From: Candidatus Velesiimonas alkalicola
GTDB lineage: Bacteria > Omnitrophota > Gorgyraeia > Velesiimonadales > Velesiimonadaceae
NCBI GenBank assembly: GCA_013626165.1
Contig: NDHX01000004.1
Coordinates: forward strand, 565 to 64,564
DNA length: 64,000 nt
Direction: 5' to 3'
In this document: piece by piece, positions 1 to 57,680 of the stretch
Layout of the letters: every line of letters begins with the position of its first letter
How positions within the stretch are numbered: position 1 is the first letter of the stretch
Program-made: the position numbers and the translations under genes
Notes under the pieces: generated by a model
The model's database searches: none
What the model was told of the DNA's origin: nothing
The model's input: only the letters and a program-made list of their open reading frames with translations

Positions 1-128
1 GAAAGGTATTCAGTGAATATTTACACAGGAAAGGAGGTGAAAAAGGTAAGTTGGTCTTGAAGTTATAGTTTTTTTATGTTCATAAGGCTCTTTCTTGCAA
101 AGGAGCCTTTAAGAAGGAGGAAAAGAAA

Positions 129-764
129 ATGAAAATGCTTAAAGAATATGGAAAGAGGAGGAAAACAAAGATGAAAAACAAAATAGTGTTAGTCTCGCTG
201 GCTATGTTGTTAAGTCTGAGCCTGGTTACTATCGGTTATTCGGCGCCAGCACCTGATGCTATAGCGCGTATTAGAGCTGCGGCGATGAAAGATATGACCG
301 AGGCAGGGATTACGAGAGCTACCGCTAGGGCTATGCTTAGAGAAGCCATGAAGGCTGACCCAAGCCTGGAGGAAGTGACCACTATCACTGCGGCTATGGT
401 CGACATGCACGAAGCGGGACTGACCCCGGAACACAGCCTGGCTTTGATAAAATTGCACGGAGAGCTTGAAGGTCTCGGGATAGCGCGGGAAATCTTCCTT
501 GAGGAATTCAGCACCCTGGCCGCGGCAAAGATAGATATGCACGAGGCAGGGATTACGGGAGCCGCCGCTATGGCTATGATTAGGGAAGCCATGAAGGCTG
601 ACCCGAGCCTGGAGGAAGTAGCCACTATCATTGCGGATAAGATCGATCTCGTGGACGAACAGCCGGAGCCTCCAGTCGAACAGCAGGAGCCTCCAGTCGA
701 ACAGCAGGAGCCCCAAGATAATGTAGAACAGGAACTCCCAAAGGAACCAGAGGACGAGCGTTGA
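129..764 (+). CDS. Secreted Ala-rich tandem-repeat protein (signal peptide, two ~80-aa internal repeats, C-terminal PEPPVEQQE repeats)
   Basis: ORF with RBS aaggagg upstream. N-terminal hydrophobic signal sequence. Internal repeats AMKDMTEAGIT..REAMKADPSLEEV occur twice. GC-rich codons, unlike the surrounding DNA. No recognisable family. Confidence 0.5.
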   Translation: MKMLKEYGKRRKTKMKNKIVLVSLAMLLSLSLVTIGYSAPAPDAIARIRAAAMKDMTEAGITRATARAMLREAMKADPSLEEVTTITAAMVDMHEAGLTPEHSLALIKLHGELEGLGIAREIFLEEFSTLAAAKIDMHEAGITGAAAMAMIREAMKADPSLEEVATIIADKIDLVDEQPEPPVEQQEPPVEQQEPQDNVEQELPKEPEDER

Positions 765-922
765 TCCGGAGATTGAACAGACCCATAGGTAGGTACAGGG
801 TCTCGACCAATAGTGAGAAGATGCAGAGTATTACTCACCTTGAACACATCTCGACCAAAATGCTGATGGAGCGCCTGCCGAGACTACTTGGGGAGTTTGA
901 GTAGATTTTCCTCGGCCGTCTG

Positions 923-1255
923 CTACGCCGGGAAAGTGACAGGGAAACCCTTGAGAACCAAGCTCATCTGAAGCAGGTTATCGGAAGCGTATTCACAGGC
1001 TTTTGCTCTTTTGGTGTTTATAACATCTAATAAATTAACAGGTACTGAAAACTCTACATAAATAGTTACACTTCCTCTTGTTATTGACTTTTTCAGCAGA
1101 CTTCTTGCCTTTATCTCAAGAGAAGAAAGAAAGAAAGGCATTCTACAATTTAAGTCAAAGAAACGGTGATTACTGCTTTTAATCTCAACAAGCAAAGATC
1201 CCTGCTTTGGCAATTTTTGCACAACCCTGCCAAAACCTGTCATAGAGTTTATCAT
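923..1255 (-). pseudogene. Truncated YicC-family protein (N-terminal domain only)
   Basis: Translation begins MINSMTGFGR, the YicC_N signature. It covers only ~110 aa against ~290 aa for intact YicC. The C-terminal end runs into the GC-rich block at 200–1010 and loses similarity. Confidence 0.5.
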
Positions 1256-5011: not shown

Positions 5012-5098
5012 ATCAGTGCACCAGGGCACCAGGGCACCAGTGCACCAAAGCATCAGTGCACAGGGCACCAGAGCACCAGGGCACCAGAGCACCAGATA
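5012..5098. repeat. Tandem octamer repeat (GCACCAGR)x~11, longest copy of a dispersed intergenic family
   Basis: Direct reading: gcaccagg gcaccagg gcaccagt gcaccaaa gcatcagt gcacaggg caccagag ... Intergenic. Followed by GC-rich palindromic sequence to ~5240. Confidence 0.8.
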
Positions 5099-5283
5099 TG
5101 ATATGAAAGAAGGGGAGATTTTCGCCCCCTTTTATAAAGGTGGACCCTTCCCCTCCCCCCCCATTTATAAAGATGGCGGGGCGCCCATCCAAAGGATGGG
5201 TCGGGGGATTATGTTTTCCCCACCCAAAGGGCGCTTGCCTTAAACCCTTGATATCTTGACGCCTATTTTTTCCCTATTCCCTT

Positions 5284-6438: not shown

Positions 6439-6486
6439 CTAACCTCTCGGTTGCCAGAGCACCAGGCCACCGGAACACCAGTTTGT

Positions 6487-9181: not shown

Positions 9182-9254
9182 AATATATTAGTTTCAACAG
9201 GGCGAACACCATAGGTTCGCCCCTACGCCATCTATATTGTCTTCTTTTTCCCCC

Positions 9255-9290
9255 ACCCACTATCTACTACCTACTACCTACTATCTTTTC
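9255..9290. repeat. TAGGTAGTAG-type tandem repeat (reverse orientation) immediately after the fabH stop
   Basis: Plus strand ctactacctactacctactatc, i.e. GATAGTAGGTAGTAGGTAGTAG on the transcribed strand. Confidence 0.7.
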
Positions 9291-16786: not shown

Positions 16787-18475
16787 ATGAATAACAGAAT
16801 TAAATATTTTGGTTTAGGAATATTTCTTTTTCTTTTTACTCTTATTATTATTCTATGGCATATCCAGGTTTTAAAAAATGAAAAGTATCTATTGCTATCT
16901 GAGAAGAACAGGATAAGGCTTGTTCCGATTGTAGCCCCGAGAGGAAATATACTTGACAGAAACGGTGTGGTTTTAGCCTTTGACAAACATTTTTTTGAAC
17001 TTGTTGCAGTGCCTCAAGATCTGTCAAAGAACAGGGAAGAATTAAAAGAACTGGCAAAAATTTGTGGCGTGGATGTAGAATATTTTCATAAAAAGATAAA
17101 AGAAAGATTTGTTGCACCGTTTTATCCCGTTGTTCTTTTAAGAGATGTTGAATTATCAAAAGTAATAAAGATTGAAGAACAAAATATAAGATTTCCAGGC
17201 ATAAGAGTAAGAGAGGTTTTCAGAAGGTATTATCCACAGGCTGAAACCTTTGCACACATTATCGGATATACAGCAAGGCCCACCTTGCTTGAGATTCTAA
17301 CTACTGAAGAATTTATAACAGATGAGGATTGGATAGGAAGAAGTGGTTTGGAAAAAACAATGGATGATGTTTTAAGAGGGAAAAACGGAGGAACGCAGGT
17401 TGAGATTGATAACAGAGGAAGAATGATAAGAACACTCAGTTGGAAAGGACCTGAACCCGGAACAGATATAAGACTAACAGTAGATGCGGGGTTGCAAGAG
17501 TTTGGGAAAAACCTGCTTGCTGGCAGAAAGGGTTCAATAGTTGTTCTTGATTGTTCCAGCGCAAGTATTCTTGCAATGGTAAGCAGTCCGTCTTATAATC
17601 CGAATTATTTTGTATCATCCGATAATCGTGTTACAGAAATATTAAATGATAGAAGATCCATAATGTTAAACAGGAGTTTATTGCCTTATCCGCCCGGTTC
17701 AATATTTAAAATTATAACAGCAATAAGCGGACTTGATAAAGAAATTATAAGTCCGTCCCAAACATTTCAATGTAGCGGAAGTATAGATATCGGGAATCAC
17801 AGAGTTCATTGTTTTGGCGCAAGAGCACATGGCAATGTAAATCTTCATAAAGGAATAACAGATTCTTGCAACACATATTTTGTAAATATCGGAAAAATGA
17901 TAGGTGTAGATAATATATCAACATATGCAAGGATATTTAACTTAGGAAGCCCTACTGGTATAGAGCTTCCATTTGAAAAAGGTGGACTTGTCCCCGATAG
18001 AATCTGGAAGAAAAAGAAAATCAACGAAGACTGGTATACAGGAGATACCGCAAACATTAGTATCGGCCAGGGGTATGTTCTTACAACTCCACTACAGATG
18101 GCAAATATGGCTCTTCTTGTTGCAAACAATGGGATATCTTTTAAACCACGCCTGATAAAAACAGAAACCAATCAGAATAAAAAAGTATCTATATTAAGCC
18201 CGGAAGTTTTCTTACCCTTAAAAGGCGCTATGGAAGATGTTGTCCGAAGAGGGACTGGAAGACTTGCAGGGGGCGATGGGATTTCTGTTGCAGGTAAAAC
18301 AGGAAGCGCACAGGTTGATAATAACAGATCACATGCATGGTTTATAGGTTATGCCCCCGTAAAAAATCCGCAGATTGCATTTGCAGTGTTTCTTGAATTT
18401 GGAGGGCGTGGCGGAGAAGAGCCTGCAATAATTGCAAAAAAAATTGTCCAGTATTGGATGGAGAATAGTAGATAG
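16787..18475 (+). CDS. mrdA: Penicillin-binding protein 2 (peptidoglycan D,D-transpeptidase)
   Basis: N-terminal TM segment and PBP dimerisation domain. Transpeptidase motifs SIFK (SxxK), SCN (SxN) and KTGS (KTG). Start set at the MNNRIKYF that immediately follows the mreD stop. Confidence 0.85.
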   Translation: MNNRIKYFGLGIFLFLFTLIIILWHIQVLKNEKYLLLSEKNRIRLVPIVAPRGNILDRNGVVLAFDKHFFELVAVPQDLSKNREELKELAKICGVDVEYFHKKIKERFVAPFYPVVLLRDVELSKVIKIEEQNIRFPGIRVREVFRRYYPQAETFAHIIGYTARPTLLEILTTEEFITDEDWIGRSGLEKTMDDVLRGKNGGTQVEIDNRGRMIRTLSWKGPEPGTDIRLTVDAGLQEFGKNLLAGRKGSIVVLDCSSASILAMVSSPSYNPNYFVSSDNRVTEILNDRRSIMLNRSLLPYPPGSIFKIITAISGLDKEIISPSQTFQCSGSIDIGNHRVHCFGARAHGNVNLHKGITDSCNTYFVNIGKMIGVDNISTYARIFNLGSPTGIELPFEKGGLVPDRIWKKKKINEDWYTGDTANISIGQGYVLTTPLQMANMALLVANNGISFKPRLIKTETNQNKKVSILSPEVFLPLKGAMEDVVRRGTGRLAGGDGISVAGKTGSAQVDNNRSHAWFIGYAPVKNPQIAFAVFLEFGGRGGEEPAIIAKKIVQYWMENSR

Positions 18476-18510
18476 TAGGTAGGAGATAGTAGGTAGTAGG
18501 TAGGGAAAAC
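18466..18510. repeat. TAGGTAGTAG-type tandem repeat immediately after the mrdA stop
   Basis: tagtagatagtaggtaggagatagtaggtagtaggtaggg. Provides stop codons in two of three frames straight after the PBP2 stop. Followed by a GC-rich palindrome (18511–18535). Confidence 0.7.
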
Positions 18511-18642
18511 CCCCCTCCTTTTATAAAGGAGGGTAGGGGTGGATTATCCTTTCAGTTTTGTGATTCGGGTACTCTTTGTGTGTGTTTCTTTTGCGGCATG
18601 CGAAGTTCGGGCGAGGTCTATGATATACAGGATACGGAATAT

Positions 18643-23408: not shown

Positions 23409-23609
23409 AAAACAATTAACTGGTAATAGATACAAAATAAAGGGATGATGTGTTAGTTAAAAAATAAGAGTGGACTGTTTTTGCAGGTATAAAATCATTA
23501 CCCTGTTCTGAAAATTCAATTGTAGGGCAAATATGACGCTCTTTTTTCCGTTATTCCCACCCCCCACCCTTTAAGAAATTTTTTCGGCAAGGGTCTTTCA
23601 AAAATTTTT

Positions 23610-23895: not shown

Positions 23896-25822
23896 AAAGA
23901 TGAGTGAAAAAATTAATAAGTCGGTGAAGATAGATATTAAGGAAGGATTAAATAAAATTTATCCTGAAGTATTTGAGGATGGTAAAGTTAATTTTGAGAA
24001 GTTGAAGACATTGTTAAGTGGCGAAATCATTGAAAAGGAAGATGATAGGTTTTATTTTAACTGGGCTGGGAAAAGCAATTTATTTAAACTTATCCAAGCA
24101 CCTGCTTATGGAACTTTAAAACCAGATAAAGAGAAGTCAGTTGATTTTGATAGGACAGAAAATGTTGTAATTGTTGGTGAAAATTTAGAGACACTTAAAC
24201 TTTTGCTTAAACCATATTTTGGTAAAGTCAAGATGATTTATATTGACCCGCCTTATAACACAGGTAAAGATTTTATTTATCGTGATAATTTTAAGGAACC
24301 ATTAAAAGACTACTTAGAAAAAACAGGACAGATTGACAGTGAAGGGCAAAAACTCACTACGAATACAGAAGCAAGTGGTAGATACCATTCTGACTGGCTC
24401 AATTTTATCTATCCGAGATTATTTTTAGCAAGAAGTTTATTAAGAGATGATGGAGTTATTTTTATCTCAATTGATGACCACGAGGTTCACAACTTACGAA
24501 AAATTATTGATGAGATTTTTGGGGAGGAGAATGTAGAAATGATGATTTGGTATAAAATTCCTGAAACAGGAACAGCAGGGCAAGGGAAAATGAAAATGAC
24601 AACACGATTTAGAGTGGACAATGAATATATTTTAGTGGGATATAAAAATATAAATAAGATTCTATTTGGTAAGCCTTTAAGAATTAAGGAATTCAAAAAT
24701 GAATATGCTAATCCTGATAATGACCTTCGGGGGAATTGGATAAGTTGTGAATTATGTAAGTCTGAAGAAAAATCAAACCCTAAAGGTAAAAATTATTACA
24801 CTGTTACAACTCCAAAAGGGATAAATATAACGAGACAGTGGCATATAACAGAAGAAGAATTTAAACAATTGGATGGAGATAATAGAATATATTGGGGTGA
24901 CGGTACAATTATACCAAGATTGAAAAGATTTTTAAATGAACCACAGCCTGTAACTCCTTCTTCCTTAATTAAAAATATTTCCCAGACACAAGGTAATAGA
25001 GAATTGAAAAATTTATTCAACGGTAAATTAACATATGACAATCCCAAACCTCTTGAACTTATATCATGGTTGATTGAAATTTCTACTTCCTCAGATTCCC
25101 TCATCCTCGACTTCTTCGCCGGTTCAGGCACAACAGGACACGCTGTCTGGAACTTAAACAAAGAAGATGGAGGCAACAGAAAATTTATTCTTGTTCAACT
25201 TGATGAAGAAGTTTTAGATGAAGAAATTAAAAAACAGTTTCCAACTGTTGCAGATATCTGTATTGAAAGATTAAGGAGAGTATCAGAAAGGTATAAGAAA
25301 GAGAACACCCCGTCCCTGCGGGACACCCCTCTGAAAGAGGGGAATTCCCCTTCTATGAAGGGGTGGCAGGCGAAGCCTGACGGGGTAGTGTTTGGGTTCA
25401 AGGTCTTCAAACTTGATAAATCAAACTTCAATCTTAAAGATGAATTTGAATTTGACCCAAGTGAAAATAAAGAAGAGTTAAAAAAGAGATATTTAGAGTG
25501 GCTTGGTATGTTTGTTGAACAACCATTAGTTCCTAACTGGCAAAAGATTGATGTTATTTATGAAGTAATGCTGAAAGAAGGATTAAATCTAAACTCTAAA
25601 ATTGAAAAGATAAAGATTAAAAACGACGAATTTTATTATGTTAAGGATGAAGAACAAAACTTAGATTTTTATATCTCTCTTAAAGACAAATTTACTCCTG
25701 AGACCATAGAAGAAATAAGAACTTCAAAATATAAAGGAAAAATGTTTGTCTTTATAGACAAAGCATTAACAGATAACAACAAAATAAATTTGAGTGCTTT
25801 TGTGAGATTAAAGGTGATATAA
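23879..25822 (+). CDS. mod: Type III R-M system methyltransferase (Mod), N6-adenine
   Basis: DPPY motif IV; FAGSGTTG SAM-binding motif; ~640 aa; upstream of res. Carries a ~95-bp GC-rich palindromic in-frame segment (25305–25400). Confidence 0.85.
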   Translation: MIKWSEKMSEKINKSVKIDIKEGLNKIYPEVFEDGKVNFEKLKTLLSGEIIEKEDDRFYFNWAGKSNLFKLIQAPAYGTLKPDKEKSVDFDRTENVVIVGENLETLKLLLKPYFGKVKMIYIDPPYNTGKDFIYRDNFKEPLKDYLEKTGQIDSEGQKLTTNTEASGRYHSDWLNFIYPRLFLARSLLRDDGVIFISIDDHEVHNLRKIIDEIFGEENVEMMIWYKIPETGTAGQGKMKMTTRFRVDNEYILVGYKNINKILFGKPLRIKEFKNEYANPDNDLRGNWISCELCKSEEKSNPKGKNYYTVTTPKGINITRQWHITEEEFKQLDGDNRIYWGDGTIIPRLKRFLNEPQPVTPSSLIKNISQTQGNRELKNLFNGKLTYDNPKPLELISWLIEISTSSDSLILDFFAGSGTTGHAVWNLNKEDGGNRKFILVQLDEEVLDEEIKKQFPTVADICIERLRRVSERYKKENTPSLRDTPLKEGNSPSMKGWQAKPDGVVFGFKVFKLDKSNFNLKDEFEFDPSENKEELKKRYLEWLGMFVEQPLVPNWQKIDVIYEVMLKEGLNLNSKIEKIKIKNDEFYYVKDEEQNLDFYISLKDKFTPETIEEIRTSKYKGKMFVFIDKALTDNNKINLSAFVRLKVI

Positions 25823-25842: not shown

Positions 25843-26133
25843 ATGAAGAATTTAGAAGAATTAAAAAGAATTATTAACCTGCATAAAAGAGAACTTGAAG
25901 AAAAATATAATGTAAAAAATATAGCCATATTTGGTTCTTATGTGAGAAACGAACAAGGTGCAGAAAGTGATATAGATATACTGGTTGAATTTAAGAAACC
26001 AGTAGGTTTACTTTTCATCCATCTTGCAGATTATCTGGAAGAAATCTTAGGCATTAAAGTTGACCTGTTAACACCCGAGGCTATAAAACCAAATCGCCGA
26101 AGATATGTAATGGAGGAATTGATCTATGTCTAA
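25843..26133 (+). CDS. Nucleotidyltransferase (MNT-type antitoxin)
   Basis: IAIFGSYVRNEQGAESDIDILVEF is the minimal NTase GS..DxD motif. Confidence 0.85.
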   Translation: MKNLEELKRIINLHKRELEEKYNVKNIAIFGSYVRNEQGAESDIDILVEFKKPVGLLFIHLADYLEEILGIKVDLLTPEAIKPNRRRYVMEELIYV

Positions 26134-26473
26134 AAGGGACTGGAAACTTTTTCTTGAAGATGTTTTGGAATCAATGGGTTTAATAGAGGGATATGTGAAA
26201 GATATGAATTTTGATAATTTCAAAAGCGACAGAAAAACAATTGACGCGGTTATCAGAAACCTTGAGATAATAGGAGAAGCCTCAAAAAATATTCCGCAAA
26301 ATATGAGAGATGCTTACAAGGATATTGATTGGAAAGGCATTATTGGCTTAAGAAATAGAATATCTCATGAGTATTTTGGTATAGATTTTTCTGTTATATG
26401 GAACATTATTAAACTTGAACTTCCTGCATTTAAAGAAAAATTTCAAAGGATACAGAAAGAAATTGAGCCATAA
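26126..26473 (+). CDS. HEPN (DUF86-type) toxin
   Basis: GLRNRISHEY carries the Rx4HxY HEPN motif. An 8-bp overlap with the upstream MNT gene gives a classic HEPN/MNT pair. Confidence 0.8.
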   Translation: MSKRDWKLFLEDVLESMGLIEGYVKDMNFDNFKSDRKTIDAVIRNLEIIGEASKNIPQNMRDAYKDIDWKGIIGLRNRISHEYFGIDFSVIWNIIKLELPAFKEKFQRIQKEIEP

Positions 26474-26474
26474 A

Positions 26475-29063
26475 ATGTTAAAGTTAAAATTTGATTCAAA
26501 ATTAGATTTCCAGATTGATGCAATAAATTCTGTTGTTGATTTATTTAAAGGTCAGAGGGAGAAGTCATTTGTTTATACATTCCAGATTATTCCTAATTTA
26601 ATAGATATACCTTCAGAAAAAATCCTTGAAAATCTACAAGAGACTCAAAAGAAAAATGGACTTCCATTATCTAACGCAGACGATTTGAAAGAACCTTATA
26701 ATTTTACTGTTGAAATGGAGACGGGAACTGGAAAGACCTATGTATATCTAAGGACAATCTTAGAATTAAATCAGAAATACGGATGGACAAAGTTCATTAT
26801 TGTAGTTCCATCGGTTGCTATAAAAGAAGGAGTTTTAAAAACTTTGGATATTACGAAAGAACATTTTAAACAGTTGTGTGAGAATTTACCTTATACCTAT
26901 TTTTCTTATAAATCGGACAATCTCGTAATGGTTCGGATGTTTGGTCAAGATACCAACCTTCAGGTTATGGTTATTACAAGAGATGCCTTTAATAAGGATA
27001 TAAATATAATCCATAATATTCACGATAAAATGGGAGATAAACCAATTGAGATTATCAAAGAGACAAAACCCATCGTTATTCTTGACGAGCCTCAAAAGAT
27101 GGGCGGAGAAGCAACTTTGTGGGGTTTATCTGAGTTGAATCCACTTTTTGTATTACGCTACTCTGCAACCCACAGAGATATTTATAATCTTGTTTATAAA
27201 TTAACTCCTTATGATGCGTATAATTTCGGATTAGTTAAAAAAATAGAAGTCCTGTCTATTACAGAAGAAGGAGACCCAAGCAGTAAAAAAATTATTTTAG
27301 AAAGAATAGAATCAACATCAAGTGGCTTAAGAGCAAAAGTCAAAGTTTTTGCTAATACAAAAGACGGTATAAAGTTTAAGATGATAACGATTAAACACGG
27401 TGATGATCTATCAAATAAGACAGATAATTCCTATTATAATGGCTTTATCACAAGTGAAATAAACAAAGGTGCAGGGTATATCTCTTTTCCTAATGGTGTG
27501 AAAATTTACGAAGGAAAATCTTCAATAGATGAAGATGAGATAATTCGTTTTATGGTAAGGGAAACGGTAAGGGAGCATTTAGACAAAAAGAAACAATTAA
27601 ATCCCAAAGGGATTAAAGTGTTAAGTCTGTTTTTTCTAAATAGAGTTGATGATTATCTATTGGAAGATGGGATTGTCCGACGAATTTTTGAAGAAGAGTT
27701 TAACAAATTTATTGAGAATCAATATTCCCCTCTTGTAGAGGGGTGTCCCGAAGGGACGGGGTGTTTTGATGTAAAGAAGGTTCATAGTGGTTATTTTTCA
27801 AAGATGAAAAGGGATAAAAGTATTGAAGAAGATGAGTCAGCATACGATTTGATTATGAAGGATAAAGAGAGATTGCTTTCGTTGGGGGAACCGGTAGAGT
27901 TTATTTTTTCCCATTCTGCTTTGAGAGAGGGCTGGGATAATCCGAATGTATTTAATATTTGCACTCTTGCTTACTCTTCTTCAGAAATTAAAAAGAGACA
28001 GGAAATCGGGAGAGGTTTAAGATTACCAGTTGACCAGAATGGGGATAGAATTCAGGATAGAGATATAAACTTATTGACTGTGATTACAAATGAAAGTTAT
28101 AGGGAATATTTAGAAAGATTACAGATAGAATACCGAGAAGAAGCAGGCGTTGAAGCACCACCTGTTGAAGAAAGAAGGCAAAGGATAAAAATAAAGCGTA
28201 AGGATGAGGTAATTCAAGGAGATTTATTTAAAAATTTATGGAATAGAGTATCTCCGAAAGCAAAGTATATTGTAAATATAGATGGTGGTAAATTCACAGC
28301 GCAATGTATCAAGGATTTACAAAAAATTGAAATAAAAAAGCCAGAAATAAGCATTAAAAAAGTTAGAGTAGATAAAATAAGCTATGAAGACATTGAAGAG
28401 GAATTTATTAGAAAAGCATCGGAAGAAACGGAGATAACCAAAGTCCTTAATCTTATACCCTGCATTGAAAGAGAAACCAGTTTAACTAAAAATACAATAT
28501 TTAAGATATTAGAAGGTTGTAATAATCTTCATCTTTTATTTGTGAATCCTCAAAAATATAAAGATATGGTCATAGAAGTTATTAAAGAGTGTAAAAAACA
28601 ATCTGAAGTTGAGGATATTAAATATATCAATTTGGAAGAAAGTTATGATGTTGGTCTTTTAAGGGAGGAAGTGGCGAGTTATGGTAAATATGTATTAAAA
28701 GTACAAAAATCAATTTATGATGGGATAATTAAAGAATCAAATATAGAAGAAGAGTTTGCTAAGGCACTTAATAAAGACTCCCGGATAAAATTATTCATAA
28801 AACTGCCTGATTGGTATTCAATAGAAACGCCTGCAGGGAATTACACACCTGACTGGGCGATTGTAATAGAAAAAGTTCAGAATGGTGTAACTTCCGAAAA
28901 AATTTACTTTGTAGTTGAAACCAAAGGAACTAATAATATTTATGAATTGAAATCCGATGAAAAAATTAAGATAAGAAGTGCTAAAAAGAGGTTTGAACTT
29001 ATAAGAGACTCAAAATTTGTGGCACCTGTTAAGGATTTTGATAGTTTTGAGAAGGAGTGGTAA
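26475..29063 (+). CDS. res: Type III restriction enzyme Res subunit (SF2 helicase-nuclease)
   Basis: ETGTGKT Walker A; VILDEPQ motif II; GWDNPNVF motif VI. ~860 aa. Start taken at MLKLKF, directly after the HEPN stop. In-frame GC-rich palindrome at 27726–27765. Confidence 0.85.
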   Translation: MLKLKFDSKLDFQIDAINSVVDLFKGQREKSFVYTFQIIPNLIDIPSEKILENLQETQKKNGLPLSNADDLKEPYNFTVEMETGTGKTYVYLRTILELNQKYGWTKFIIVVPSVAIKEGVLKTLDITKEHFKQLCENLPYTYFSYKSDNLVMVRMFGQDTNLQVMVITRDAFNKDINIIHNIHDKMGDKPIEIIKETKPIVILDEPQKMGGEATLWGLSELNPLFVLRYSATHRDIYNLVYKLTPYDAYNFGLVKKIEVLSITEEGDPSSKKIILERIESTSSGLRAKVKVFANTKDGIKFKMITIKHGDDLSNKTDNSYYNGFITSEINKGAGYISFPNGVKIYEGKSSIDEDEIIRFMVRETVREHLDKKKQLNPKGIKVLSLFFLNRVDDYLLEDGIVRRIFEEEFNKFIENQYSPLVEGCPEGTGCFDVKKVHSGYFSKMKRDKSIEEDESAYDLIMKDKERLLSLGEPVEFIFSHSALREGWDNPNVFNICTLAYSSSEIKKRQEIGRGLRLPVDQNGDRIQDRDINLLTVITNESYREYLERLQIEYREEAGVEAPPVEERRQRIKIKRKDEVIQGDLFKNLWNRVSPKAKYIVNIDGGKFTAQCIKDLQKIEIKKPEISIKKVRVDKISYEDIEEEFIRKASEETEITKVLNLIPCIERETSLTKNTIFKILEGCNNLHLLFVNPQKYKDMVIEVIKECKKQSEVEDIKYINLEESYDVGLLREEVASYGKYVLKVQKSIYDGIIKESNIEEEFAKALNKDSRIKLFIKLPDWYSIETPAGNYTPDWAIVIEKVQNGVTSEKIYFVVETKGTNNIYELKSDEKIKIRSAKKRFELIRDSKFVAPVKDFDSFEKEW

Positions 29064-32149: not shown

Positions 32150-32200
32150 CCAGTCACCAGGGCACCAGAGCACCAGAGCACCAGAGCACCAGGGCACCTG
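32150..32200. repeat. GCACCAGR octamer tandem repeat
   Basis: cagtcaccagggcaccagagcaccagagcaccagagcaccagggcacc, between the mfd start and the apbE end. Confidence 0.8.
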
Positions 32201-45560: not shown

Positions 45561-48500
45561 TTATCCACAACTGTAGATTACCGAGCATTCTACTTCTGGA
45601 TATAGATTGTCTATATTTTTTTGAATTTCTATTGTCTTTTTCAGGGCGGTGGCGATTTGGCAGTAGTGTTTTATGTCATTGAGGGAAAGGGTTTTCCCTT
45701 TTCTGTCTTTGAGCCATTTGTTGAGCACTTGATAACCACCGATTTGGTATTCCCAAACATCTTTTTCTATTCCCTCAAAACATTGGTCCTTGTTGATGTA
45801 GACCTTTTTTTCTTTTTCACTGTATTTCGGATTCTCCATTCTTCCACTGCCTCTTTCTGGAAACTGGGCAAGGGGATCATCTAACGCTATTGATTTCAAG
45901 AGATGCAAACCAACAAGGACTTTTCCATATCTTTCCATTTTGATGAACAAATCATAATCCTTCGTAAAAGGTATCCTCGGAAAGTCTACTTTTAAAAATT
46001 CAGCGTATTTCTTGCGGTAGACATTGGAATAGAGAGTGCCGTAAATATAAAAGAAAATTTCTTCGGGAGAAGGCTCCTGGCTATAAACTTGAGATAATTT
46101 TTCCACTAATTCAGGGTTGAGGTTGGGTTTCTTTTCGCCTGATTCTAAATGGCTGAACAGACCTTTCTTATCAGTATTGGGGTAGAGGTAGAGAGGACAA
46201 ATAGTATTGTTTGCGAAAGCACTTTCAAAAACACAACTTTCAACAATAAGATCTGACACAAACGTGTAAGAAAATGGTGTCATCTTATTCTGCCTTTTAA
46301 TAAGGAGGCCCAAATTCTCCTGTATCATATGCTGCATTACTTCTTTGCGTGAGCGTTCTATAACAGCATCATGATAGAAAATCCATTGTTTATCAAAAGG
46401 GCGGTAGAGAATTTTTGTAATTGCCTGCTCCCAATCGTCATCTTTTGCTAATTCTCTTCTAACTTCAGCAAACTTCCAGCCTCTTGTATCTTTTAATTTA
46501 AAAGTCTGTTTAACAAGTTCATCGGGCATTGATAGGTTTCTGAACATCGCTATCCGTCTTTTTAAGACATCTTTATCAAAATCAATTACAAATTTATCTC
46601 TTGCCGTAACAATGCCAACACAATTAACAGGAAAAATATCCGTTACTTTCCAGTATTTCTCATAAATTTCTCTCCCTTTCTCTTCTCGTGGGATAAAGAA
46701 GTAATAAGGACTTGTTGGGCTTAGCTTTTTCCATTGGGTCGTTTTTATATCATTCCTCAAAAGCCAATCGCTTTTCTTTTCTCTCAATCCCCAAATCTCT
46801 GAATGATGGACCTTACAGTCAAATCCCCCCTTACCCCCCTTTTCTAAAGGGGGGATGGGGGGCTTACTCTTTATAAACAAAGCAATAGCCACTCCTTGCT
46901 GAATATCAAATACATTATTATCTTTAGAGCCATCGGGGCATTTCTCTTTTTTCAAACTGTTACCATGTAAATCTAAAATATAAATTTCGTTAAAGCTCTT
47001 CATCAAAGACTGCCGCATACCTCTGAATGTGGGATTATCAAGATAACTATGATTGGTGATAAATCCTAAGACTCCTTCACCTGCCTGGTCTATCTTCCAC
47101 TGGGCAAAACGAATAAACTTAACATAATCGTCCTGAAGCCATTTTGGATTCTTCTCGCCAAGTGGTTTGCTGTCAACCTGAAAGTAAGCCTTAATCTCTT
47201 TTGATATCCAATTACCGATGTTAGAGGAATGACCTGAATACGGCGGATTGCCGAGGATTACCAGTATAGGCTGTTCTTTTTTAACTTTCCCGGCTAAATG
47301 GGATTCCTCGGAAAGAGAAGCCATGCCGGGAATCTCGGCCTGGGCAAGCTCCTCCATCTCTAAGGTATTAGTGAGATAGAGTTTGACCCTATCGTCCCTC
47401 TGGAGTCTATAACCAAGTCCTTCTAATAGAAAAGACATCTTTAAATGGCCAACTGCATAGGGCGCCATCATTAGTTCAAAGGCATAGAAATTTTTAAGGA
47501 TATGTTCCTTGATAAATTTTTCTTTACCCCCCTCACCATATTTGGAGACAAATTCTTCTACGGCTAATTTGGATGCCTCAGCCAAAAAGGTAAGCGTGCC
47601 GGCGGCCGGGTCTAAAACAGTAACCGAATCACTGGCAAATCCATCTGCTCTATTAAAATGTTCCTTCAAAATATCTTGTAAGGAACGGGCAATGTAGGAG
47701 ACCACAGGTTCGGGAGTATAATAGACACCCCTCTTTTCCCTCGTTTGTGGGTCATATTCAGCTAAAAAAGTTTCATAGAAGTGGACAATGGGGTCTTTGC
47801 CCTTGCCTTCATGGAAATACTGATGAAGGATATTTTTAACATCAGTAACGGCTAAGACTTCGGAAATATCGTCTATAATCCATTCCATCTGCGGGGGCAA
47901 CTTGCCGCGAGAAACAAACTCAAAAACATCTCGCAATATTCCGATAGTGCCGGGGATATTATCATAAGCCAATTTGCGGTTAAATCCATTTTGTGAGCGA
48001 GTGCGAGCCGCAAAAAGACCATAGGTGATAGTCTGAGCGTATAGATCGGCAAAATCTTCCCTGGTAAGCCCCTTGATGAGATATTCCTGAAATGCCTTAT
48101 AGAATCCCAGGATAAAACCTTTGCCTTTTTCTTCCTCTTCTTTTAATTCTTCTATGATGACTTGGTCTTTCAAGAAACGGGTTCTTTTGGCCAGTTCTAT
48201 AGCCAAAGACTCTGCGGTATAGGTTTGAGGAAGAGAGAAAGAGAAAAATTTGTTTAATAAGCCCAGGAAATCTTTTTCCTTCTCTACAGGGGGAATTGTT
48301 TTTAATGTGTGGATAATAAAAGGCCGGGCAATAAGAACTCTATCAATTAATTGCCCATTACGGTACAAGCGAAATTCAAAAAAGTTGGTCAGGATAAGAT
48401 TGGGAAAAGTTTTAAGGTATCTCTTAAGCTGCTCAGTGTCTTCTATAATATCAAGATTCTTCTCTATGGGCCTTTTTGCTTCTATGTATCCGACAATGTT

Positions 48501-48698
48501 TTGCTTCCCATCCCAAATTCTAAAATCGGGGTTGCCGGCATCAGTCTTTTTAGGCAAGGTAGTGATATAAATCCGCTTTTTATTGATGGAGTTAGAAAAG
48601 GTTTGGAGAAGTCCTTCCAGAGTAGAATAATAACTTTCCTCACGGGCATCTTCTCTTAAGGCTACCTCAAATATTTTTCTTAAATATGCCTTTAGCAT
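45561..48698 (-). CDS. Type IIL/IIG single-chain restriction-modification enzyme (MmeI family)
   Basis: N-terminal PD-(D/E)xK module (…PDFRIWDG…GYIEAKRP). Central gamma-class N6-A MTase: motif I VLDPAAGTLTF and motif IV GNPPYSG. Long C-terminal TRD. 1045 aa. In-frame GC-rich insert at 46822–46866. Confidence 0.8.
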   Translation of the reverse strand: MLKAYLRKIFEVALREDAREESYYSTLEGLLQTFSNSINKKRIYITTLPKKTDAGNPDFRIWDGKQNIVGYIEAKRPIEKNLDIIEDTEQLKRYLKTFPNLILTNFFEFRLYRNGQLIDRVLIARPFIIHTLKTIPPVEKEKDFLGLLNKFFSFSLPQTYTAESLAIELAKRTRFLKDQVIIEELKEEEEKGKGFILGFYKAFQEYLIKGLTREDFADLYAQTITYGLFAARTRSQNGFNRKLAYDNIPGTIGILRDVFEFVSRGKLPPQMEWIIDDISEVLAVTDVKNILHQYFHEGKGKDPIVHFYETFLAEYDPQTREKRGVYYTPEPVVSYIARSLQDILKEHFNRADGFASDSVTVLDPAAGTLTFLAEASKLAVEEFVSKYGEGGKEKFIKEHILKNFYAFELMMAPYAVGHLKMSFLLEGLGYRLQRDDRVKLYLTNTLEMEELAQAEIPGMASLSEESHLAGKVKKEQPILVILGNPPYSGHSSNIGNWISKEIKAYFQVDSKPLGEKNPKWLQDDYVKFIRFAQWKIDQAGEGVLGFITNHSYLDNPTFRGMRQSLMKSFNEIYILDLHGNSLKKEKCPDGSKDNNVFDIQQGVAIALFIKSKPPIPPLEKGGKGGFDCKVHHSEIWGLREKKSDWLLRNDIKTTQWKKLSPTSPYYFFIPREEKGREIYEKYWKVTDIFPVNCVGIVTARDKFVIDFDKDVLKRRIAMFRNLSMPDELVKQTFKLKDTRGWKFAEVRRELAKDDDWEQAITKILYRPFDKQWIFYHDAVIERSRKEVMQHMIQENLGLLIKRQNKMTPFSYTFVSDLIVESCVFESAFANNTICPLYLYPNTDKKGLFSHLESGEKKPNLNPELVEKLSQVYSQEPSPEEIFFYIYGTLYSNVYRKKYAEFLKVDFPRIPFTKDYDLFIKMERYGKVLVGLHLLKSIALDDPLAQFPERGSGRMENPKYSEKEKKVYINKDQCFEGIEKDVWEYQIGGYQVLNKWLKDRKGKTLSLNDIKHYCQIATALKKTIEIQKNIDNLYPEVECSVIYSCG

Positions 48699-54539: not shown

Positions 54540-54580
54540 GTTAACAGAGCACCAGGCACCAGAGCACCAGGCACCAGATA
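54540..54580. repeat. GCACCAGR octamer tandem repeat
   Basis: cagagcaccaggcaccagagcaccaggcaccag, between the galK start and the upstream gene end. Confidence 0.8.
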
Positions 54581-57624: not shown

Positions 57625-57680
57625 AGGCGACTGAGCGACAGGCGACTGGTGCACTGGTGCACTGGTGCTCTGGTGCTCTA
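57625..57680. repeat. GCACCAG-family octamer repeat in reverse orientation (CTGGTGCW)
   Basis: gcgactggtgcactggtgcactggtgctctggtgctct, between short nfeD and floA on a plus-strand operon. Confidence 0.8.

Follow-up and report, generated by a model that had tools for sequence, protein, structure and literature searches.

GC-rich inserts in three restriction-modification genes

The 64-kb stretch of DNA from Candidatus Velesiimonas alkalicola analysed here (the window, with an overall guanine-plus-cytosine (GC) content of 37.5%) contains a Type III restriction-modification operon, with its modification gene mod and its restriction gene res, as well as a gene for a single-chain Type IIG/ISP-like (MmeI-like) enzyme, hereafter ISP, and each of these three genes carries a short GC-rich palindromic segment within its coding sequence (Table 1). 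A preliminary description had delimited the three segments, describing them as sharply GC-rich, palindromic and repeated, and had treated them as a single type of element inserted in frame. Their coordinates, sequences and peptides proved exact, and so did the contrast in composition, the segments having a GC content of 0.63 (mod), 0.61 (res) and 0.58 (ISP) and the remainder of the respective genes 0.31, 0.31 and 0.39, i.e. 58–63% against 31–39%. The segments, 36–84 nt in size, are all stop-free and in frame, and the host open reading frames (ORFs) are intact and of full length.

A scan for GC-rich perfect hairpins resolves four in mod (GTCCC-TGC-GGGAC, CCCCTC-TGAAA-GAGGGG, CCCCT-TCTATGA-AGGGG and CAGGC-GAA-GCCTG), two in res (CCCCTC-TTGTA-GAGGGG and GTCCC-GAA-GGGAC) and one in ISP (CCCCCCT-TTTCTAA-AGGGGGG, nested in CCCCCC/GGGGGG). 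Folded as single-stranded DNA, the mod segment reaches -25.4 kcal/mol (z -5.0, with 0 of 200 dinucleotide shuffles as good), and the res and ISP segments likewise fold better than their shuffles (z -3.4 and -3.5). That the segments are palindromic and repeated was borne out when copies were compared by the hairpin scan, by a pattern of 28 specified bases and by a covariance model built from 40 units. The pattern matches the window twice without a mismatch, once on each strand, where none is expected; the res insert, when reverse-complemented, gives exactly the unit so defined, and the two units in mod (25305–25388) form a head-to-head doublet. By the covariance model, the 64 kb contain three such units, each within the Type III operon, and no further significant match. 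The ISP segment was rejected as a member, as the model matches only a generic 17-nt hairpin there (E ~0.5). Judged by their sequences, the mod and res segments belong to one family (family A) present in opposite orientations and the ISP segment to a different one (family C), and the idea of one shared element type thereby holds for mod and res and fails for the unrelated ISP segment.

Insertion status among orthologues

For each of the three proteins (Mod, Res and ISP) 120 homologues were gathered and aligned, and the orthologues without the segment number ~110 of 120, 114 of 120 and 87 of 120, respectively. Because most orthologues keep the short form at each site, the alignments identify the segments as lineage-specific additions at insertion-tolerant linkers or loops, in keeping with the in-frame insertion that had been supposed. 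The Mod site is a linker following the helix ...ADICIERLRRVSEKYKKE and preceding FGFKVFKL, with 23 or 29 residues between these two anchors in ~85 orthologues, and in the closest of them (P0003; 87% identity by BLASTP, 90% over the alignment) the site is empty and reads KKEN-NN-LDFGF. An insert of the window type, TPSxxxDTPLKEGN with or without SPSMKGWQAKPDGVV, is found in seven sequences, namely the window protein (equal to P0001 and P0002), P0011, P0016, P0018, P0024, P0027 and P0028. It occupies residues 469–497, directly after the final helix for which a solved Mod structure can be aligned, since the alignment to 6K0W and to EcoP15I (4ZCF) stops at residue 468. At the Res site, the 114 orthologues read ...NKLIKNGFKEFSNLDVKKVHSGYF, and SPL(V/L)EGCPEG(T/A)GC occurs only in the window protein (P0121), P0125 and P0131 among the 120. 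The corresponding ISP loop comprises 26–28 residues (FIKKKGEKKECKVYHSEIWG) in the 87 orthologues of the short form, inserts of at least six different GC-rich kinds are found in ~30 others at the 46822–46865 loop, and in the alignment to LlaBIII (4XQK) the insert falls at a three-residue gap after the strand GVAIALFIK. The empty sites were also read in DNA, as AAAGAAAAC/AATAAT for Mod and GAGAAT/GAATTT for Res.

Other inserts were seen in the same proteins. A second GC-rich repeat, unrelated to family A and encoding the peptide IASxxPRND (tandem at times), lies in the same Mod linker of ~15 orthologues (P0004, P0012, P0019, P0042–P0049, P0053, P0054, P0064, P0103, P0116, P0118 and P0120); from its peptide, it looks like a classical CGTC-type repetitive extragenic palindrome (REP; CGTC-ATTGCGAG...). 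The Mod linker is a hot spot for several element families. Four Res orthologues (P0130, P0153, P0155 and P0156) carry an A-like unit (PRQTSSDTPLQKGN) at another, N-terminal site (alignment column 87), and P0133 has a further GC-rich insert, PTYAEASAGR (column 717), a peptide that is also present in the methylase of locus L151. Inserts at the ISP loop include VGQTFLSDHNRTDKNVCST, SPELVEGRK, TPLSSPLNKGGIKGG, ERISADYADYTDL and LPSARNDN, along with longer ones that are not GC-rich.

Architecture and distribution of the family A unit

The unit was derived by reading three loci at the DNA level, namely L002, where the site is empty, L004, with a similar filled site, and L001, the locus of P0028. It is a 41-nt double hairpin, CACCCCGTC-(variable hairpin)-GACACCCCTC-N5-GAGGGGAAT, which in the window loci takes the form ACACCCC-GTCCC-NNN-GGGAC-ACCCCTC-N5-GAGGGG-AAT and can be generalized to (C/A)CACCCCGTC-(hairpin 1)-GACACCCCTC(C)-N4-5-(G)GAGGGGAAT. 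Its conserved single-stranded motifs are CACCCCGTC, GACACCCC and GGGGAAT; the first stem varies freely and the second is fixed.

The 19-base core GACACCCCTC-N5-GAGGGGAAT, which leaves hairpin 1 outside the pattern, was scanned against one genome per species, and the genome results given here and below refer to the matches listed in that scan. Exact matches were listed for over 120 stretches of genome DNA, spread over many phyla, with hosts including Chryseobacterium, Pedobacter, Flavobacterium, cyanobacteria, Verrucomicrobiales, Atribacteria, Cloacimonadota, Fibrobacter, Armatimonadetes, Proteobacteria and Actinobacteria; these units are mostly intergenic and are abundant, for example, in Chryseobacterium. 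Hairpin 1 is a perfect hairpin closed by GTC...GAC in 123 of 153 copies, with 33 different 5' arms and stems of 4–12 bp (the Chryseobacterium arm, GTCAAAAATTC..., is AT-rich), and ACCCC precedes it in 108 of the 123 units. When 40 distinct units are aligned, the first free pair of hairpin 1 (12–24) is AU in 14, CG in 14, GC in 8 and UA in 3, with zero mispairs; the covariation score of hairpin 1 is 0.281 as compared to 0.080 in shuffles (0 of 500 that high), and the pairing falls from 97% to ~50% when the partner column is slid. The res copy itself differs from its orthologue in L150 by a compensatory T:A to C:G change in the hairpin-1 stem. Depending on frame and orientation, the unit is translated as TPSLRDTPLKEG, HPVPSGHPSMRGE or SPLVEGCPEGTG, and since the stem covaries and the same DNA gives unrelated peptides, conservation is at the level of nucleic-acid structure and not of the peptide. 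In 38% of the units all six frames are open (10% of shuffles), which goes some way to explaining the survival of in-frame insertions.

Rfam returned no match for the window and 15 loci at its gathering score or E-value thresholds, giving sub-threshold chance hits only (serC leader, mir-491 and 6A), and a full-text literature search for the literal motifs retrieved primer coincidences only.

Association with DUF559 nuclease genes

In the locus of P0028 (L001), a complete in-frame DUF559 ORF (PF04480) is found at exactly the Mod site of the window, in the order (A)(A)(reverse A)-DUF559-(A), and the reverse unit directly 5' of the DUF559 ORF in both L001 and L151 is near-identical to the second mod unit of the window. 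In a neighbour-gene test, in which all ORFs within 400 nt of a unit were clustered for 120 genome loci, DUF559 was the only family to recur across unrelated loci (23 of 120), and 25 of 148 units lie within 400 nt of a DUF559 match. The usual layout has a reverse unit upstream of DUF559 and a forward unit downstream of it, with doublets on both sides in some loci (L085 and L009).

The association was also examined from the side of the protein, in an independent sample of 80 DUF559 relatives fetched from metagenomes by protein patterns alone, with flanks of 200 nt. The second hairpin is present in 69 of the 77 evaluable upstream flanks and the full unit in 46; downstream, 73 flanks were evaluable, with the second hairpin in 58 and the full unit in 44. 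The 704 background windows yielded the second hairpin in 22 cases and the full unit in 9 (reverse) and 6 (forward). The upstream unit typically ends 11–28 nt before the conserved N-terminus of DUF559, at spacings (11, 13, 22, 23, 25 and so on) that are not multiples of three, so that, the spacing being out of frame, its conservation is at the DNA level; for the downstream unit, the typical start lies between -7 and +10 nt relative to the C-terminus.

The DUF559 gene of the cassette has ~115 codons and appears intact by sequence, with the ExDGxxH motif kept in 79 of the 80 copies and a stop in one copy only. It matches PF04480, PRK09767 and PDB entry 3HRL, an 'endonuclease-like protein' that is the closest solved structure, and VSR, DUF559 and the structure of the homing endonuclease I-Bth0305I (3r3p) have been placed in one PD-(D/E)XK group (PMC3424549). 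The DUF559 proteins of L151 and L001 are 80% identical and share the leader SPSxKGWQAKPDGVV, and the L151 host methylase is ~28% identical to the Type III Mod; such similarity in unrelated hosts suggests that the cassette has moved between them. Family A is rare on viral contigs, as a search of 2.9 million of them gave 4 stretches on 3 contigs, with a DUF559 cassette in one, and phages were accordingly rejected as the main home of the family. The literature search on DUF559 found nothing on an association with repeats; one survey reports DUF559 as enriched among predicted inversion targets beside restriction-gene families (PMC9881135), which fits its bracketing by inverted repeats inside restriction genes.

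Preference for restriction-modification genes

In the independent sample, 52 of the 80 DUF559 genes are embedded in frame, with an open frame of at least 120 codons beyond, and the embedded hosts that were scanned with Pfam are restriction-modification genes without exception (17 of 17): N6_N4_Mtase proteins (9), Type ISP/MmeI-like enzymes (4), HsdR (3) and a Type IIG enzyme (1). Three further DUF559-bearing loci (L178, L198 and L172) hold an HsdR or Mod gene with an interruption. The position of the cassette is fixed per host family, lying at the HSDR_N/ATPase junction in HsdR and at profile position ~182 of Type_ISP_C, and no intein or Hint domain was found in 27 host Pfam scans.

A similar picture is given by the intragenic units of the genome sample, in which 8 host ORFs are restriction-modification genes, coding for Type ISP proteins (two in L009, and L056, L098 and L112), HsdS (L014) and HsdR (L021 and L038). 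The other internal hosts are a MeaB-mutase fusion, two RlaP genes and the C-terminus of a cyclase, and in the remaining spanning frames the unit lies at the very start of the frame or there is no Pfam match. The preliminary description had remarked that the intragenic copies are all in restriction-modification genes, and this can hence be extended to family A and its DUF559 cassette in general.

Locus L009 (684–5713) contains a Type ISP-like gene pair, from a metagenome-assembled genome, with four A doublets and a DUF559 cassette, inside ~200-nt tandem repeats encoding NATTEKIQ..., and shows to what extreme a restriction gene can be loaded with repeats.

Proposed origin of the segments and alternative explanations

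The segments are probably read-through copies of small GC-rich palindromic repeats, with the mod doublet and the single res unit being cargo-less units of one pan-bacterial element that brackets a DUF559 gene and for which a nuclease-driven spread is proposed. In the model, palindromic repeats would persist in permissive linkers and loops of horizontally mobile restriction-modification genes. In its complete form, the element consists of two inverted units bracketing the DUF559 gene; this cassette stands free in some loci but lies more often in frame in restriction-modification genes, among which four architectures are represented (Type III Mod-like, Type I HsdR, Type ISP/MmeI-like and Type IIG). 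The units are usually stop-free and would add peptides rich in Pro, Gly, Ser and Glu, so that an insertion whose length is a multiple of three would only lengthen a loop and leave the host gene intact. We infer both the mobility of the element and its mechanism, in which DUF559 would serve as the element's own structure- or site-specific nuclease, acting on hairpin or cruciform ends or on empty alleles, and copies would spread from one restriction-gene allele to another through break-repair or gene conversion, as well as through horizontal transfer of the restriction genes themselves. The units without cargo may then be non-autonomous relatives or deletion remnants, in parallel to REPINs and the RAYT (REP-associated tyrosine) transposase, and recombination of the direct A units in an L001-like allele could give the single-A alleles of P0016 and P0024.

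A wider version of this proposal, which can be put forward only tentatively, holds that the DUF559 family (including E. coli YcjD) comprises the nucleases of an unrecognised 'hairpin-end' PD-(D/E)xK cassette that parasitises restriction-modification genes, with six-frame-translatable termini serving as linkers in place of an intron or intein, the window segments as its non-autonomous offspring, and the missing enzyme of the CGTC-type REPs thereby supplied.

It has to be noted that several observations weigh against a nuclease-driven element. No excision, transposition or cleavage event was observed in any locus, tblastn finds no DUF559 in the 64-kb window, and DUF559 is without known biochemical activity. 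The genome distribution of family A is a sample from the matches listed, and 83% of these lie more than 400 nt from any DUF559, mostly in intergenic DNA. The DUF559 sequences rank by host family, which fits a long residence in each host lineage as well as active homing. Neither a target-site duplication nor an exact element boundary is definable from the filled and empty sites, as the flanks of the filled alleles differ; the same comparison places AAT/ATT at the insertion junctions, yet the element itself has this end. For Mod, an AlphaFold2 model made from a 24-sequence alignment has a mean predicted local distance difference test (pLDDT) score of 50.7, too poor to place the insert in a surface loop, and no partner gene was found for family C, for which the search was not systematic.

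The remoteness of most units from DUF559 is also the point on which the first alternative draws, in which a tyrosine (RAYT/IS200-like) transposase with its gene at another place would mobilise the units in trans as REP/REPIN-type elements, and DUF559 would be a frequent passenger or a preferred landing site. The form of the units agrees with it, as a short imperfect palindrome, a conserved CGTC-type tag, pairing head to head and copies inside genes are all described for the GTAG/CGTC REPs (PMC3733652). It is nevertheless considered unlikely, since no transposase family recurred among the ORFs near the units, where DUF559 stood alone, and since the independently sampled DUF559 genes have inverted units at fixed distances in ~60–90% of cases, as RAYT genes have with their own REPs; moreover, the CGTC-tagged REPs have no dedicated transposase according to PMC3733652.

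Decidedly unlikely, in turn, is a reading of DUF559 as a domesticated domain, i.e. an extra nuclease or repair module of some restriction-modification enzymes, with the hairpin peptides as linkers and the window segments as scars of its loss. The constant position of the cassette within each host family, the ranking of DUF559 similarity by host family and the conserved catalytic residues are all as such a domain would have them, and the (A)(A)(reverse A)-DUF559-(A) order of L001 could yield the (A)(reverse A) of the window by deletion. A domain of this kind is, however, difficult to reconcile with the ~26 of 80 cassettes that are free-standing with the same flanks, with the abundance of units in intergenic DNA, as in Chryseobacterium, or with the lack of the domain in most orthologues of every host, and a protein linker would need neither a covarying stem nor units in all frames and both orientations.

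Host-selected cis elements, either as inverted repeats driving inversion or recombination (phase variation or allele shuffling) or as intragenic RNA or DNA structures tuning expression, appear very unlikely. Fragments of restriction genes on the opposite strand were found in 0 of 33 non-embedded DUF559 loci, for which reason an invertible cassette was rejected; the doublet of the window holds no cargo to invert, the insertion sites lie away from the borders of the variable specificity region, and the same units occur in unrelated intergenic contexts. On the side of cis elements are the swapped central specificity regions of Mod orthologues, which lie between conserved ends, and the stronger conservation of family C relative to its flanks. 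It is barely plausible that the segments are ancestral, arose by convergent selection on the protein or reflect an assembly artefact, for although they are in frame in intact, full-length host ORFs, most orthologues, including the closest, are without them, the same DNA gives different peptides by orientation and frame, and the inserts recur in independent assemblies and samples (P0001/P0002, L004, L005, L150, L147 and L148).

Comparison with known systems

In-frame palindromic repeats are already known, and what appears undescribed is the link to DUF559, the family itself and its host preference. The Rickettsia palindromic elements (RPEs) were reportedly described by Ogata and co-workers in 2000 as lying in frame in protein genes. 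RPE-1 is roughly 100–150 nt long. The family A unit measures 41 nt (84 nt as a doublet), has a double-hairpin architecture and is associated with a DUF559 nuclease gene, and it is found in Bacteroidota, Cyanobacteria, Verrucomicrobiota, Atribacterota, Proteobacteria and others, whereas RPEs belong to one genus, a distinction drawn from their descriptions and not from a comparison of consensus sequences. The RPE-like character suggested at the outset can thus be retained in the sense that the segments work like RPEs, and not as membership, in view of their size of 36–84 nt, their occurrence beyond Rickettsia and a different candidate partner enzyme. Intragenic GTAG/CGTC REPs are likewise in-frame palindromes, dimers included, with a bias to DNA-repair genes (uvr, rec and polymerase genes; Di Nocera et al. 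2013, PMC3733652). Family A resembles both groups in being read through at permissive sites that are empty in orthologues, in occurring as single units and head-to-head dimers, and in being biased towards genes of DNA metabolism; its hosts are restriction-modification genes, in contrast to the uvr, rec and polymerase genes of the REPs (PMC3733652).

The closest logic to that of family A and DUF559 would, by analogy, be that of the REPIN–RAYT systems. These are said, after work by Nunvar in 2010 and by Bertels and Rainey in 2011, to consist of REP doublets and a flanked tyrosine transposase. The likeness extends to a conserved unpaired tag with a covarying stem, to the head-to-head doublet as the non-autonomous form and to a single-copy enzyme gene bracketed by inverted units or doublets (as in L085 and L009). 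In contrast to them, family A brackets a PD-(D/E)xK (Vsr-like) DUF559 nuclease and not an HUH/Y1 transposase, its tag is CGTC-like and not GTAG, and its cassette is commonly translated within the host protein. As for the CGTC-tagged REPs, PMC3733652 gives them a stem of 8–9 bp starting with A/T pairs, a loop of 4–5 nt and a 3-nt CCA tail. CCCCGTC precedes hairpin 1 in the same 108 of 123 family A units, and the Chryseobacterium stem (CGTC-AAAAATTC..., 8 bp, with an A/T start) agrees with the rule for the stem. By stem and loop rules, and not by consensus, family A differs in that its GTC pairs with GAC, the stem has 4–12 bp, a second invariant hairpin is present and the CCA tail is missing. 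The Chryseobacterium class (GTCAAAAATTC) fits and the window class (GTCCC) does not, and family A is a candidate member of these REPs at most.

Inverted units around a nuclease gene, together with short cargo-less derivatives, also recall miniature inverted-repeat transposable elements and insertion sequences, though DUF559 is not a recognised transposase family (DDE, Y1 or serine). Homing endonuclease genes, which include Vsr-like/EDxHD forms (Dassa 2009, PMC2677866; Taylor 2011, PMC3239194), are like the cassette in that a small nuclease ORF, of the Vsr/DUF559 clade, keeps to one site in a family of host genes whose related alleles are empty (filled and empty Mod in L001 and L002, respectively). 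The cassette departs from them in having no intron or intein, the DUF559 ORF being continuous with the host frame and harm being avoided by in-frame linkers that the hairpins encode. Only an analogy may be drawn with yeast mitochondrial DNA. Its mobile GC-rich palindromic clusters also lie in an AT-rich genome, some of them in frame in coding sequences; they differ in being organellar and eukaryotic and in having no associated nuclease cassette.

The enzyme that moves most in-frame palindromes and the reason for their gene preference have hitherto been open, and one such repeat is now tied to a conserved nuclease family, a tie that rests on covariation and on two-way co-occurrence statistics. 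If DUF559 acts on the hairpins, a large orphan protein family would gain a function, a third way beside introns and inteins would exist for a nuclease gene to sit harmlessly in a host gene, and restriction-modification genes, themselves selfish and mobile, would carry parasites of their own. Annotators and defence classifiers should expect Pro/Gly-rich loops of 12–30 residues and whole DUF559 domains in Mod, Res, HsdR and Type IIG/ISP proteins.

Family C and the intergenic hairpins

Family C, represented by the ISP segment, has the consensus AATCCCCCC-N2-3-CCCCCC-TTTWNWAAA-GGGGGG-N2-3-GGGGGGATT, and is thus a further palindromic repeat, independent of family A, in a loop prone to insertions. 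The minus-strand read-through of the window copy is KPPIPPLEKGGKGGF. The closest ISP orthologue (P0242 in L149, 78% amino-acid identity) has an empty loop; L147 and L148 carry a copy at the same site with 93–98% nucleotide identity, against 57–85% in the flanks, and the consensus occurs in 17 viral contigs as well. Four intergenic sites of the window had been called similar to the intragenic segments. Two of them, at 5124–5144 and 18513–18533, are degenerate C-like hairpins, and the other two belong to neither family, 9201–9224 being an unrelated hairpin and 23555–23580 being C-rich but non-palindromic.

Genes and other features of the window

Table 1. Positions of the repeat units, host genes and neighbouring genes in the window
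Feature	Position	Strand	Evidence
Type III mod (N6_N4_Mtase)	23900..25822	+	Pfam
Family A unit in mod, ACACCCCGTCCCTGCGGGACACCCCTCTGAAAGAGGGGAAT, peptide TPSLRDTPLKEGN	25305..25345	+	Pattern match, 0 mismatches; covariance model 58.3 bits (unit in training set)
Second family A unit in mod, hairpin-1 class GTCAGGC/GCCTG, peptide SPSMKGWQAKPDGV	25344..25388	-	Covariance model 40.6 bits, E ~1e-7 (outside training set)
Type III res (ResIII helicase and RE_endonuc)	26475..29063	+	Pfam, EcoP15I Res alignment, orthologues
Family A unit in res, reversed relative to gene, peptide SPLVEGCPEGTGC	27724..27764	-	0 mismatches; covariance model 59.9 bits (in training set)
Single-chain Type IIG/ISP-like (MmeI-like) enzyme (N6_Mtase, Eco57I and Type_ISP_C)	45561..48698	-	Pfam
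Family C nested palindrome, AATCCCCCC-TTA-CCCCCC-TTTTCTAAA-GGGGGG-AT-GGGGGG	46822..46865	.	Hairpin scan, pattern, fold
Degenerate C-like hairpin, CCCCCCTCC-TTTTATAAA-GGAGGG-TAGGGGTGG	18511..18541	.	2/20 mismatches (18513-18533); fold z -2.6
Degenerate C-like hairpin (GCCCCCTTTTATAAAGGTGGA), weak, intergenic	5124..5144	.	3/20 mismatches; fold not above shuffles, z -0.9
MNT-like ORF, between mod and res (context, outside repeat)	25843-26133	+	ORF call
HepT toxin gene (context, outside repeat)	26126-26473	+	ORF and HepT Pfam match
Amidase-family ORF, 476 residues	21978-23408		Pfam Amidase

The start codon of res is uncertain, its ORF opening at 26415. The Type III operon has a GC content of 31%, below that of the surrounding window, and its Res and Mod orthologues, with 78–88% and 63–82% amino-acid identity, respectively, occur in contigs whose labels name Omnitrophica, Atribacteria, Ignavibacterium, Caldisericia and Anaerolineaceae and, among archaea, Altiarchaeales, Parvarchaeota, Aenigmatarchaeota and Micrarchaeaceae. 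Such close orthologues across labels so distant, together with the low GC content, imply a very wide recent horizontal transfer.

The cargo of the slot between mod and res differs between relatives of the operon, being an MNT-like/HepT toxin-antitoxin pair in the window (25843–26473) and L004, a GmrSD-HNH nuclease in L002 (7879–9165) and a YhcG/DUF1016 nuclease in L001 (8347–9417) and L150 (1–999). In L004, where the same layout is repeated, the first gene of the pair is annotated NTP_transf_2/Polbeta, and the corresponding ORF of the window (25843–26133) is a putative MNT-like gene.

The first 1000 nt of the window (1–1000) have a GC content of 49.5%, well above the rest, with a 21-nt tandem repeat at 656–712 and overlapping ORFs on both strands. 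Short intergenic tandem arrays of an 8-mer are found at 5014–5095, 6443–6473, 32155–32198, 54545–54578 and 57645–57676, reading GCACCAGR on the plus strand, or ACTGGTGC if the genes on either side are plus-strand genes; the mRNA-sense strand is always (CUGGUGCN)n, each array lies in the spacer immediately 5' of the next gene in the same direction, and the arrays look like a strand-specific signal at the RNA level. They are presumably comparable to the short tandemly repeated repetitive (STRR) sequences of cyanobacteria and the heptamer repeats of Beggiatoaceae. Tandem arrays of a 7-mer are present in two further intergenic spacers, (ACCTACT)n at 9255–9283 and (AGTAGGT)n at 18460–18504, the latter directly adjoining the C-like hairpin at 18511–18541.

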